A DNA stretch of 32,000 nt from Candidatus Iainarchaeum sp. (GTDB taxonomy: Archaea; Iainarchaeota; Iainarchaeia; Iainarchaeales; JACQJH01), in NCBI GenBank assembly GCA_016205145.1, contig JACQJH010000002.1:90001-122000 (forward strand), written 5' to 3'. The number at the start of each line of letters is the position of its first letter. Position 1 is the stretch's first letter. The translations under genes and the position numbers were made by a program. The notes beneath the pieces are model-generated. The model searched no databases. It had not been told where the DNA came from and saw nothing but the letters and a program-made list of their open reading frames with translations. Of this stretch, positions 13,017 through 13,232 are shown one piece after another.

Positions 13017-13232
13017 ATGAAAAAAATCAGGTGCCCGGACTGCAGGGAACTCTTTGAGATAGACGAAACCGAGTACGATGAGGGCGACTACGTCAACTGC
13101 CCGGAGTGCAACACGGAGCTTGTCATAGTCGAGCACGTGAAGGGCAAATTCAAGATAAAGCTTGCAAAGGAAGTCGAAATGGAAGACGATGACGAGCCTG
13201 AAGAGGAAGAGGTCCCTGAAGAATCAGAGTGA
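13017..13232 (+). CDS. LysW-like zinc-ribbon protein with a polyacidic C-terminal tail (amino-group carrier protein-like)
   Basis: 71 aa. The zinc ribbon is C6PDC9...C28PEC31. The tail EVEMEDDDEPEEEEVPEESE has 14 acidic residues in its last 20 and ends in Glu. A TATA-like TTTTAAAA lies at 12966-12973. Confidence 0.7.
   Translation: MKKIRCPDCRELFEIDETEYDEGDYVNCPECNTELVIVEHVKGKFKIKLAKEVEMEDDDEPEEEEVPEESE

Follow-up and report, generated by a model that had tools for sequence, protein, structure and literature searches.

The locus described here raises the question of what function is served by a LysW-like zinc ribbon with an extended polyacidic tail in Candidatus Iainarchaeum, and which of the neighbouring genes, if any, act together with it. 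The DNA analysed was a 32,000-nucleotide stretch of one contig (hereafter, the window). The first-pass annotation had called the gene an orphan and had suggested, as a speculative link, that its product forms a carrier-protein or tail-modification system with a pair of RimK/LysX-family ligases. The loci of the ribbon relatives (designated by L and a number) were gathered with a degenerate DNA pattern, and Acidobacteriota dominate the matches listed. For the ligase side, a metagenome scan was performed with relatives of the ligase RimK1, and the 12 loci whose flanks extended to at least 4 kb were taken as informative.

The ribbon gene, its fold and its tail

The ribbon gene (positions 13017-13232, forward strand) is a complete coding sequence of 71 amino acids plus stop, starting with ATG, and its product, a LysW-fold zinc-ribbon protein with a polyacidic tail, reads MKKIRCPDCRELFEIDETEYDEGDYVNCPECNTELVIVEHVKGKFKIKLAKEVEMEDDDEPEEEEVPEESE. 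CPDC occupies residues 6-9 and CPEC residues 28-31, with 18 residues between them; the last 20 residues contain 14 D/E and no K/R, and the C-terminal residue is Glu, all as first described. The net charge of the whole protein is -17. Among the 354 stop-to-stop ORFs of at least 50 amino acids in the window, the runner-up has 7 D/E in its last 20 residues. The DNA signature of the ribbon family occurs once in the window (0.00 expected from shuffles), the GC3 of the ORF (0.65) is in line with that of adjacent genes, an identical protein is present on other contigs, and one near-identical relative was obtained by a word-index protein search. The ORF is regarded as a real gene because, in homologues down to approximately 30% identity, C6, C9, C28 and C31 never vary and conservation reaches at least 90% at P7, G23, D24 and P29. 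A TATA-like box, TTTTAAAA (positions 12966-12973, forward strand; approximately 47 nucleotides 5' of the ATG), and a GTGA Shine-Dalgarno-like element 8-11 nucleotides 5' of the ATG were read from the sequence; from the former, a promoter of its own is possible for the ribbon gene. The tRNA and Rfam scans of the 32-kb window gave no matches.

In the AF2 model, residues 1-50 (positions 13017-13166, forward strand) form a globular zinc-ribbon domain of five beta strands (pLDDT, 79-89), with CPDC and CPEC as the predicted zinc ligands; strands are placed at residues 34-41 and 44-49, in agreement with the earlier description of the segment LVIVEHV as beta-strand-like. When this model was used for a Foldseek search, the five best matches were all LysW chains (probability, 0.99-1.0; TM up to 0.87, rmsd 1.1 Å over 49 columns), derived from LysW alone or bound to LysY, LysZ, ArgX or LysX. 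Together with PF21344 (the Pfam LysW ribbon), which matches 25 of 30 ribbon-family members among the matches listed (best E = 1.4e-11), this result bears out the LysW-like domain that had been proposed. A sequence search of the PDB with the ribbon gave nothing significant, the best match being LysW 5k2m_E (E = 0.25).

The tail, residues 52-71 (EVEMEDDDEPEEEEVPEESE; positions 13170-13229, forward strand), is polyacidic in composition and has a pLDDT below 50; residues 56-71 are disordered in the AF2 model, according to which the tail would be disordered and accessible. As modelled, the ribbon protein is thus a small cytoplasmic protein in which a LysW-fold domain (residues 1-50) is followed by a disordered polyacidic tail. 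In the 26 archaeal relatives among the matches listed, the C-terminal residue is E in 17, D in 7, P in 1 and S in 1, and the tails have no conserved terminal motif, none with Trp. A Glu-Glu end, the acceptor reported for E. coli RimK, is found in 7 of these 26 tails; the window protein ends with VPEESE, i.e., Ser-Glu. The family is uncharacterised and, judged from the sequences, its members are present in DPANN-type archaea (Iainarchaeum/Diapherotrites-like). A literature search of incomplete coverage, by which novelty is not proven, gave no description of the family or its cluster.

A nucleic-acid- or ribosome-associated zinc ribbon, tied to translation via adjoining aminoacyl-tRNA synthetase genes, was also considered. 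TyrRS is encoded upstream and CysRS downstream in many loci, the IMG labels on relatives include 'RpoP' and 'topoisomerase Zn-ribbon', and weak sub-threshold matches to ribosomal zinc ribbons were obtained. However, the matches to such proteins are all non-significant (E at least 0.8, PDB), and by structure the ribbon is close to LysW rather than to ribosomal proteins. Because the globular domain is net acidic (D/E 12 versus K/R 8), as is the protein as a whole, the ribbon is unsuited to RNA or DNA binding; a nucleic-acid-binding role was rejected for the acidity of the domain, and the explanation appears scarcely credible.

Relation to the LysW/ArgW carriers

To our knowledge, LysW is the one zinc ribbon whose acidic tail is known to serve a RimK-family ligase as substrate, and the only role known for LysW-type ribbons is that of a carrier in the biosynthesis of lysine, arginine and some secondary metabolites. 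The window ribbon has the zinc-ribbon fold in common with LysW/ArgW (PF21344, NF041070; PDB: 3WWL, 3VPB, 5EIO, 5K2M) and has the same layout, the ribbon first and then an acidic disordered tail; its candidate partner RimK1 is a RimK-family ATP-grasp protein homologous to LysX/ArgX. Thus, the protein might be the plain LysW/ArgW of this genome, with lysX/Y/Z/J/K (argX etc.) encoded elsewhere on the chromosome. Besides the fold, this explanation has in its favour that carrier_LysW_Arch is the top NCBIfam match of the window ribbon (E = 9.8e-7) and that UniRef labels one ribbon relative 'Lysine biosynthesis protein LysW'.

An HMM comparison with the LysW family, which had been proposed earlier, gave matches to both PF21344 and NF041070, but at scores far under the curated cut-offs (17.4 versus 27 bits and 28.7 versus 75 bits, respectively); the ribbon relative at L146 is likewise sub-threshold (19.4 and 21.9 bits). 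The EDWGE end is absent from the window protein and from its archaeal family, and the window tail is approximately twice the length of the LysW/ArgW tail. In profile searches, no lysX/Y/Z/J/K gene was found in the 32-kb window, as the first-pass annotation had stated, and in the flanks of the approximately 26 ribbon relatives among the matches listed, no gene of these types was found either, so that its description of a non-canonical LysW with a longer tail holds. The sole LysX-like gene, that for RimK1, scores 109 bits versus the LysX cutoff of 275.6. The conserved partner of the ribbon is a membrane protein, unlike that of LysW/ArgW, and the ribbon is associated with peptidases and a GNAT in place of the kinase, reductase and aminotransferase of the LysW/ArgW system. 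Because of the sub-cut-off scores, the missing EDWGE end and the lack of lysX/Y/Z/J/K near the relatives, membership fails: the ribbon protein is not a LysW/ArgW carrier of lysine/arginine biosynthesis, and that it is nevertheless the ordinary carrier of this genome is very improbable. The automated names 'LysW', 'RpoP' and 'topoisomerase Zn-ribbon' are unreliable and give no basis for inferring a lysine pathway in DPANN archaea.

At L156/157, genes for an Orn/DAP decarboxylase and a saccharopine-dehydrogenase-family protein lie near the ribbon gene, and an HMGL-like gene carries a LeuA_dimer domain. The former two resemble the carboxynorspermidine dehydrogenase/decarboxylase pair, which we presume them to be; the assignment of these ribbon-adjacent genes to a lysine pathway was rejected.

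The membrane protein and the ATP-grasp module

The gene directly upstream of the ribbon gene (positions 12076-12702, forward strand) encodes a membrane protein of 208 amino acids with approximately five transmembrane helices (Memb). In approximately 25 of 26 loci among the matches listed, a gene for such a multi-helix protein of approximately 200 amino acids lies directly 5' of the ribbon gene (the window, L003/4, L007, L014, L033, L042, L053, L057, L059, L069, L072, L075, L082, L090, L109, L132, L135, L138-L147, L153 and L156/157). Because this upstream partner gene is strictly conserved, the ribbon ORF is not an orphan, contrary to the first-pass annotation. No significant Pfam or NCBIfam family was found for Memb; Yip1 (PF04893; cutoff, 28.6 bits) matched two of six members over the full length, but weakly (E = 0.024 and 0.11), and did not match the window protein. 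The helical model is of low confidence (AF2 single-sequence pLDDT, 58), and the word-index protein search gave two relatives.

The two ATP-grasp genes are located on the reverse strand. RimK1 (positions 6755-7825) is an ATP-grasp protein of the RimK-family alpha-L-glutamate-ligase type, with a score of 153.5 on TIGR00768 (cutoff, 143.4) versus 109 on LysX_arch (cutoff, 275.6) and with intact catalytic motifs; it has 356 amino acids when read from its true start, the ATG at 7825-7823, which overlaps the Grasp2 stop as ATGA. Grasp2 (positions 7822-8682; 286 amino acids), which is translationally coupled to RimK1 and always directly 5' of it in the loci compared, is a degenerate ATP-grasp paralogue (Pfam RimK, 25.5 bits). 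Since the catalytic motifs WRANVSRGG and ExN have been lost, in all four of the aligned genomes, Grasp2 is probably non-catalytic and no ligase; it may be a partner or adaptor of RimK1. The idea of two active ligases, implied by the earlier 'pair of ligases', was therefore rejected. The polybasic tail to which charge complementarity with the ribbon had been ascribed is in fact a K/R/G-rich N-terminal extension of RimK1 of approximately 55 amino acids, and it is missing from the 85% identical relative at L128 and from most others; charge complementarity with the ribbon tail was rejected, the segment not being conserved.

Seen from the ligase side, Memb lies within 3-5 kb of the RimK1 subfamily in 11-12 of the 12 informative loci, and the ribbon gene does so too in 11. 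Core genes are present in 9-12 of the 12 loci, flanking genes are common to only 1-5, and CysRS identity inside the locus group is 62-89%. In ten loci, the genes for a protease, a GNAT, Memb and the ribbon follow one another in the same direction, with short spacers in the nine that were measured; the ribbon and Memb appear to be co-operonic there with a RimB-like retropepsin and the GNAT. This arm is divergent from Grasp2, RimK1 and one or two MATCAP genes, in this order, and L109 has the same divergent arrangement minus the GNAT. In the second arrangement (L132, L075 and the window), NMNAT and TyrRS are inserted. The PF05618 retropepsin of the relatives (31.9 versus a cutoff of 27; DTG motif intact) is present at L109, L130-L132, L134, L135 and L137-L147; HExxH is intact in both PF08014 MATCAP proteins (145 and 194 bits), and the cluster GNAT is closest to RimI. 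At L134, the RimK module and Memb are present without a ribbon gene.

No RimB-like retropepsin was detected in the window (phmmer, E < 1e-4), and the GNAT and MATCAP genes of the relatives' cluster are likewise absent from its 32 kb. The window locus is a reduced version, in which the ribbon, Memb, Grasp2 and RimK1 are kept and the peptidases are lost; the ribbon gene and the ligase genes are on opposite strands, separated by 4.3 kb with four unrelated genes (NMNAT, TyrRS, a Na/Pi transporter and Memb) in between. Seen from the ribbon side, the RimK module is in reach in approximately 3 of 10-11 unbiased loci among the matches listed (the window, L075 and L109), and it is out of reach at L033, L042, L053, L059, L072, L154/155 and L156/157; the pair of ribbon and Memb therefore exists without an adjacent module. 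Thus, the link to the ATP-grasp genes, which the first-pass annotation had called speculative, has real support and is better grounded than that annotation could know as far as the ligase subfamily is concerned (proximity in two arrangements, with protease, GNAT and MATCAP genes in relatives), but is borne out from the ribbon side at only those three or so loci.

The same neighbourhoods can be read as two units. The ribbon and Memb would be self-contained, with a static tail that serves in electrostatics, cation binding or protein interaction; the RimK module would be separate, near by inherited synteny, and the ATP-grasp/protease/MATCAP/GNAT genes would make or recycle a small peptide (e.g., poly-glutamate or a NAAG/NAGGN-type N-acetyl dipeptide). 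Memb followed by the ribbon is indeed the most conserved association among the matches listed, and it persists with no RimK in reach at L033, L042, L053, L059, L072 and L156/157. Neutral synteny is also evident: since the housekeeping CysRS or TyrRS are conserved in the same neighbourhood, part of the shared gene order clearly has no functional meaning. NAAG and NAGGN are products of RimK-like ligases that work with a GNAT or an amidotransferase; an AsnB-type amidotransferase gene comes after RimK1 in the window, the GNAT of the relatives scores 26.6 bits on the NAGGN synthetase GNAT model, and a RimK-type ligase with either partner could make a small peptide instead. On the other hand, the window AsnB exceeds the housekeeping asparagine synthase equivalog cutoff (452 versus 267 bits), the RimK1 subfamily is almost never apart from the pair of ribbon and Memb (11-12 of 12 loci) while the flanks beyond the core are not conserved, and the protease and GNAT genes stand in one co-directional, tightly spaced array with Memb and the ribbon. 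Furthermore, proteins are the documented substrates of the retropepsin, MATCAP and RimI-like families (PMC11957791, PMC10499314). Two independent units are, in our judgement, possible but doubtful.

The acidic tail as a candidate substrate

The reading that we favour is that the acidic tail of the ribbon is a substrate of RimK-type ligation and trimming, to which a probability of roughly 0.4 is given on the basis of genomic context. From what was directly established (the fold, the conservation of the family, the gene order around it and the state of the enzyme motifs), we infer the substrate role of the tail, the chemistry and a role of the membrane partner as follows. The ribbon domain would dock on RimK1, as LysW does on LysX/ArgX, possibly with the help of Grasp2; the free C-terminus of the tail would then enter the active site of RimK1 for the ATP-dependent addition of an amino acid, most likely glutamate. 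In relatives, the RimB-like retropepsin and the MATCAP-like metallocarboxypeptidases would counter the extension, with the RimI-like GNAT encoded in the same operon, and the state or length of the tail might tune the interaction of the ribbon with the membrane protein encoded upstream. Against a tail substrate count the variable last residue (E 17, D 7, P 1 and S 1 among the matches listed), the small share of Glu-Glu ends, the partial link from the ribbon side, the missing ribbon gene at L134 and, in the window, the distance between ribbon and ligase genes, their opposite strands and the lack of the protease, GNAT and MATCAP genes.

Alternatively, the ribbon might be a LysW-type carrier for some other small-molecule pathway, the C-terminus of which is loaded by RimK1, followed by tethered chemistry (e.g., by the GNAT) and release by the MATCAP-like carboxypeptidase. 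In the AAA pathway, the product is released by LysK, and the metallocarboxypeptidase of the cluster would be analogous to it in role; the LysW fold, the homology of RimK1 to LysX/ArgX and the acidic C-terminus in 24 of 26 members among the matches listed also agree with such a carrier. However, no kinase, reductase or aminotransferase (equivalents of LysZ/Y/J) is encoded in any cluster examined, and the C-terminal residue and its flanking motif vary, where a carrier ligation site would be expected to be conserved. An endoprotease of RimB type, moreover, suits tail trimming more than product release, and the carboxypeptidase is missing from the window. A different carrier pathway is thus quite improbable.

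Ribosomal protein bS6 is, as far as we know, absent from archaea, and the candidate substrate here is the LysW-fold ribbon instead. The favoured reading of ligation and trimming at the ribbon tail follows the bacterial RimK-RimB-RpsF system, in which RimK lengthens poly-Glu at the acidic C-terminus of RpsF and RimB cuts it back; RpsF is so far the only protein known to be C-terminally poly-alpha-glutamylated (PMC11957791). In both cases the ligase belongs to a RimK subfamily above the TIGR00768 cutoff, a PF05618 retropepsin is paired with it (in the relatives of the ribbon, together with a candidate substrate with an acidic tail), and the proposed logic of extension countered by trimming is the same (PMC11957791, PMC4741518). 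The ribbon cluster differs in having a degenerate ATP-grasp paralogue, MATCAP-like carboxypeptidases, a GNAT and Memb in addition, and in having no RimA; the window also has no protease, and only 7 of the 26 ribbon tails among the matches listed end in Glu-Glu.

The second likeness is to MATCAP/TMCP (KIAA0895L/KIAA0895; PF08014, bacterial 'QEGLA' TIGR02421), enzymes that trim acidic tubulin tails and deglutamylate (PMC10499314). In the relatives, the ATP-grasp ligase gene is directly followed by one or two genes for PF08014 proteins that have HExxH, and the ribbon tail is acidic like the tubulin tail, with F/Y near the end in many members as in alpha-tubulin. The ligase here is of the RimK family, in contrast to the TTL/TTLL enzymes that work with MATCAP/TMCP, the ribbon is not tubulin- or FtsZ-like, and the window has no MATCAP gene; the parallel is a functional analogy, which we infer.

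Extended to the whole cluster, the scheme would amount to a protein 'tail code' in DPANN archaea, in which a RimK-type ligase, with a pseudo-enzyme paralogue as helper, reversibly lengthens the genetically encoded tail, a retropepsin and a MATCAP-like enzyme shorten it, and the tail state controls a membrane protein; in this full form it is rather unlikely. If true, it would be the first archaeal C-terminal protein polyglutamylation and only the second prokaryotic case; it would also connect LysW/LysX carrier chemistry with RimK/RpsF modification in evolutionary terms and place the MATCAP family, the editor of eukaryotic tubulin tails, in a prokaryotic setting. With the combination of ribbon, RimK, RimB-like protease, MATCAP-like enzyme, GNAT and Memb, these enzymes would gain a substrate class and a biological context that are both new, the prokaryotic MATCAP ('QEGLA'/DUF1704) family would have a candidate substrate, and a simple testable system of two to four proteins would be available.

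Similar architectures are found in bacteria. FYDLN_acid proteins (PF09538/TIGR02300), a bacterial group with a pair of CxxC motifs and no assigned function, have the same architecture as the window ribbon: their zinc ribbon leads into a long, low-complexity poly-D/E tail. The window protein gave no match to this family at E of 0.01 or below and is without its [KR]FYDLN motif between the CxxC pairs, the stretch reading ELFEIDETEY; the L146 relative alone passes (26.9 versus 23.9 bits), a match that may partly be driven by tail composition. LysW-like proteins of Acidobacteriota (L008-L127) have the signature CPxC-x13-GD-x3-CPxC and an extended polyacidic tail in common with the ribbon but, unlike the window protein, keep the LysW-type W-containing end, EDW[DE]E, after very long poly-D/E tails. 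In a noisy analysis of the neighbours in 11 of their loci, where high GC gave many spurious ORFs, a PP-loop ATPase was found downstream, and neither a membrane partner nor a RimK-family match was present. Two of these proteins, P0048 and P0054, are reciprocal HMMER relatives of the ribbon (E of approximately 1e-3).

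Ribbon family and its relation to LysW

The ribbon ORF (13017-13232, + strand) encodes 71 aa, MKKIRCPDCRELFEIDETEYDEGDYVNCPECNTELVIVEHVKGKFKIKLAKEVEMEDDDEPEEEEVPEESE, in which 18 residues separate CPDC (residues 6-9) from CPEC (28-31), 14 of the 20 C-terminal residues are D/E and Glu comes last, as the first-pass annotation had read from the sequence. These 20 residues are free of K/R, the protein has a net charge of -17, and the runner-up acidic C-terminus in the window (354 ORFs of >=50 aa compared) reaches 7 D/E over the same length. The GC3 of the ORF is like that of the adjacent genes, and a TATA-like box, TTTTAAAA, was read by eye ~47 nt upstream on the + strand; tRNA and Rfam scans found no such features in the window. 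An exhaustive HMMER search yielded 55 relatives (E <=1e-3), the majority 60-80 aa long and alike in layout. In the family alignment, C6, C9, C28 and C31 were invariant and P7, G23, D24 and P29 were >=90% conserved (signature CPxC-x13-(E)GD-x3-CPxC). The tails were acidic in all members without sequence conservation; 24 of the 26 members compared end in E or D, and only seven of them in EE. The ORF is a genuine gene and belongs to a conserved family that has no name. Members with organism names come from Candidatus Diapherotrites/Iainarchaeum, and the nearest matches of the window TyrRS are also Iainarchaeum loci, which points to a DPANN archaeon of this group as the probable source of the window. 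Public names of the relatives are "hypothetical protein", "LysW", "RpoP" and "topoisomerase Zn-ribbon"; that the protein is a nucleic-acid or ribosomal zinc ribbon is contradicted by the acidic domain and seems to us highly improbable. The relatives include P0008 (116 aa), P0013 (163 aa), P0006 (869 aa) and P0015 (826 aa); some relatives carry a Lys-rich N-terminal extension of 50-100 aa before the ribbon and acidic tail, and two long proteins of the family contain five ribbon copies each.

The structure was predicted with AF2 using the family alignment: residues 1-50 formed an ordered five-stranded ribbon (pLDDT 79-89) and residues 50-55 a short helix, after which the tail was disordered. The top five Foldseek matches in the PDB were all LysW chains (5EIO_C, 3WWN_B, 3WWL, 3VPB_E and 5K2M_F; probability 0.99-1.0, TM up to 0.87, rmsd 1.1 A over 49 columns), and the Pfam LysW ribbon model matched 25 of 30 family members, more than any other model (best E-value, 1.4e-11), which bears out the first-pass description of a LysW-like ribbon. 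The fold would also suit a carrier that works like LysW in some other small-molecule pathway, a role that we consider unlikely. The protein scored below both curated LysW cut-offs (17.4 bits vs 27; 28.7 bits vs 75), it lacks the EDWGE terminus, and no lysX/Y/Z/J/K-type genes were found in the 32-kb window or near any of ~26 relatives; it had rightly been set apart from canonical LysW. That it is a plain LysW, with its pathway genes elsewhere in the genome, seems very improbable from the window and the relatives' loci. The ribbon protein is LysW in fold and outside the LysW family.

LysW-like ribbons (MATCPECDAEIEVDEFDVDKGD...CPECGSNLEV) were also seen at >= about 85 loci of Acidobacteriota (Vicinamibacterales and others; L008-L127, e.g. 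L026 4000-4260, L021 and L035), with poly-D/E tails of 40-60 residues and a LysW-like EDW[DE]E at the end. A PP-loop ATPase gene (SGGVDSA motif) lies directly 3' of the ribbon gene in several of them, and no RimK-family gene was detected in these loci (8 kb each).

Membrane-protein partner

The ribbon gene had been called an orphan. This was incorrect: a membrane-protein gene (Memb, ~190-235 aa; 12076..12702, + strand, 208 aa in the window) adjoins it directly 5' in nearly all archaeal loci with upstream DNA present (window, L003/4, L007, L014, L033, L042, L053, L057, L059, L069, L072, L075, L082, L090, L109, L132, L135, L138-L147, L153 and L156/157). In L053 the two genes are convergent, with the ribbon gene on the opposite strand, and the sole exception seen to the adjacency was L154/155. 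Memb has a predicted helical structure with some five transmembrane segments; it matched no Pfam or NCBIfam family, and its relatives show weak Yip1-like matches. Looser but frequent neighbours of the ribbon gene are TyrRS upstream and CysRS downstream (gap to CysRS, 67 to 865 nt across loci).

The window and L001 share a divergent small-gene pair, 13977-14351 (- strand; 124 aa, winged-helix-like) and 14406-14660 (+ strand; 84 aa). It is missing in strain L003 (ribbon protein 93% identical), where AlkD directly abuts PurQ, and looks like a strain-specific two-gene insertion.

ATP-grasp pair and the cluster in relatives

RimK1, the RimK-family ATP-grasp gene (6755-7825, - strand), has its true start at the ATG 7825-7823; this codon and the stop of Grasp2 (7822..8682, - strand) overlap as ATGA. 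RimK1 exceeded the RimK-subfamily cutoff (153.5 vs 143.4 bits), was well under the equivalog cut-offs for LysX, S6-ligase, MptN and CofF, and has intact catalytic motifs. The WRANVSRGG and ExN motifs have been lost from its degenerate paralogue Grasp2 in each of the four aligned genomes, and Grasp2 probably acts as a partner without catalytic activity. Between RimK1 and PurA lies a full, housekeeping-type asparagine synthase gene in the window (AsnB, 4805-6634, - strand; TIGR01536, 452 bits vs cutoff 267) and in L128, and a MATCAP-like gene in L132. The Iainarchaeum locus L075 contains, upstream of Grasp2-RimK1, one further RimK-like ATP-grasp gene (3-827, - strand), its third and a more distant one.

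For a reciprocal test, metagenomes were scanned with RimK1 relatives, and 25 loci were obtained. Ten long-flank loci (L135, L138, L140-L143, L145-L147 and L149) have the order CysRS < ribbon < Memb < GNAT < retropepsin and, across a divide, Grasp2 > RimK1 > MATCAP (> MATCAP); L109, a locus of a reference genome, has the same order without GNAT. L132 has ribbon < Memb < TyrRS < NMNAT > retropepsin < and, across the divide, Grasp2 > RimK1 > MATCAP, which is the arrangement of the window plus the peptidases, and the order in L075 mirrors the window. L134 contains Memb, GNAT, retropepsin, Grasp2 and RimK1 and lacks the ribbon gene, with 27 nt alone (6835-6862) between CysRS and Memb at its usual site. 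The RimB-like retropepsin (PF05618, 31.9 vs cutoff 27) has an intact DTG motif; the MATCAP proteins (PF08014, 145 and 194 bits) have HExxH motifs and are matched by the QEGLA family of bacteria; and the nearest family of the GNAT is RimI. The protease, GNAT, Memb and ribbon genes run in one direction with short spacers in 9/9 loci measured. Core genes were present in 9-12 of 12 loci, flanking genes common to only 1-5, at CysRS identities of 62-89% within the group and RimK1 identities to the window of ~48-50%; conservation of the core thus exceeds background synteny. The locus of the window, in whose 32 kb neither protease nor GNAT nor MATCAP genes occur, is a reduced form of the relatives' cluster.

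This synteny of the RimK1 subfamily with the ribbon-Memb pair strengthens the previously proposed link between ribbon and ATP-grasp proteins. The charge complementarity invoked for that link has to be abandoned: the "polybasic" segment is a K/R-rich N-terminal extension (~55 codons) of RimK1, not a tail, which recurs only in L137 and L145/L149 and is absent from L128 (85% identical) and most other relatives.

Proposed tail modification and the independent-pair alternative

LysX and ArgX, which are RimK homologues, receive the acidic tail of LysW (PDB 3VPB, 5K2M). The acidic C-terminus of RpsF is extended with poly-Glu by RimK and trimmed by RimB, stated to be the sole known case of C-terminal poly-alpha-glutamylation (PMC11957791), and acidic tubulin tails are trimmed and deglutamylated by MATCAP/TMCP enzymes (PMC10499314). 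By analogy with these systems, we propose that the ribbon would dock on RimK1, with Grasp2, that its tail would be extended and then trimmed, and that the state of the tail would modulate the Memb partner. The system would be a variant on the LysW/LysX and RimK/RimB themes, the MATCAP component being unexpected. Literature searches found no earlier description of the ribbon family or the cluster.

The RimK1 subfamily is nearly always beside the ribbon-Memb pair. Among the matches listed, in the unbiased set of loci recovered with the ribbon as query, the ribbon has the module within reach in the window, L075 and L109, and not in L033, L042, L053, L059, L072, L154/155 and L156/157; either the ribbon-Memb pair has a wider distribution than the module, or those genomes encode the module at another site. 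It is quite possible, if on the doubtful side, that the pair is independent of the module and the latter makes a small peptide. The asymmetry fits, but does not establish, an enzyme set dependent on the ribbon as substrate.

Among the other window genes, the TyrRS ORF (8966-10243, + strand) is over-called by ~110 codons at its 5' end (the family match begins at residue 112), and this extension overlaps, on the opposite strand, an NMNAT-like gene (8779-9354). At 27639-30134 (+ strand), genes for a radical SAM enzyme, a Memo-like protein and AMMECR1 follow one another directly, which we take to be the recurrent "AmmeMemoRadiSam" trio, and at the left end a Fic/DOC-family protein gene (842-1804, - strand; 320 aa) adjoins IMPDH.
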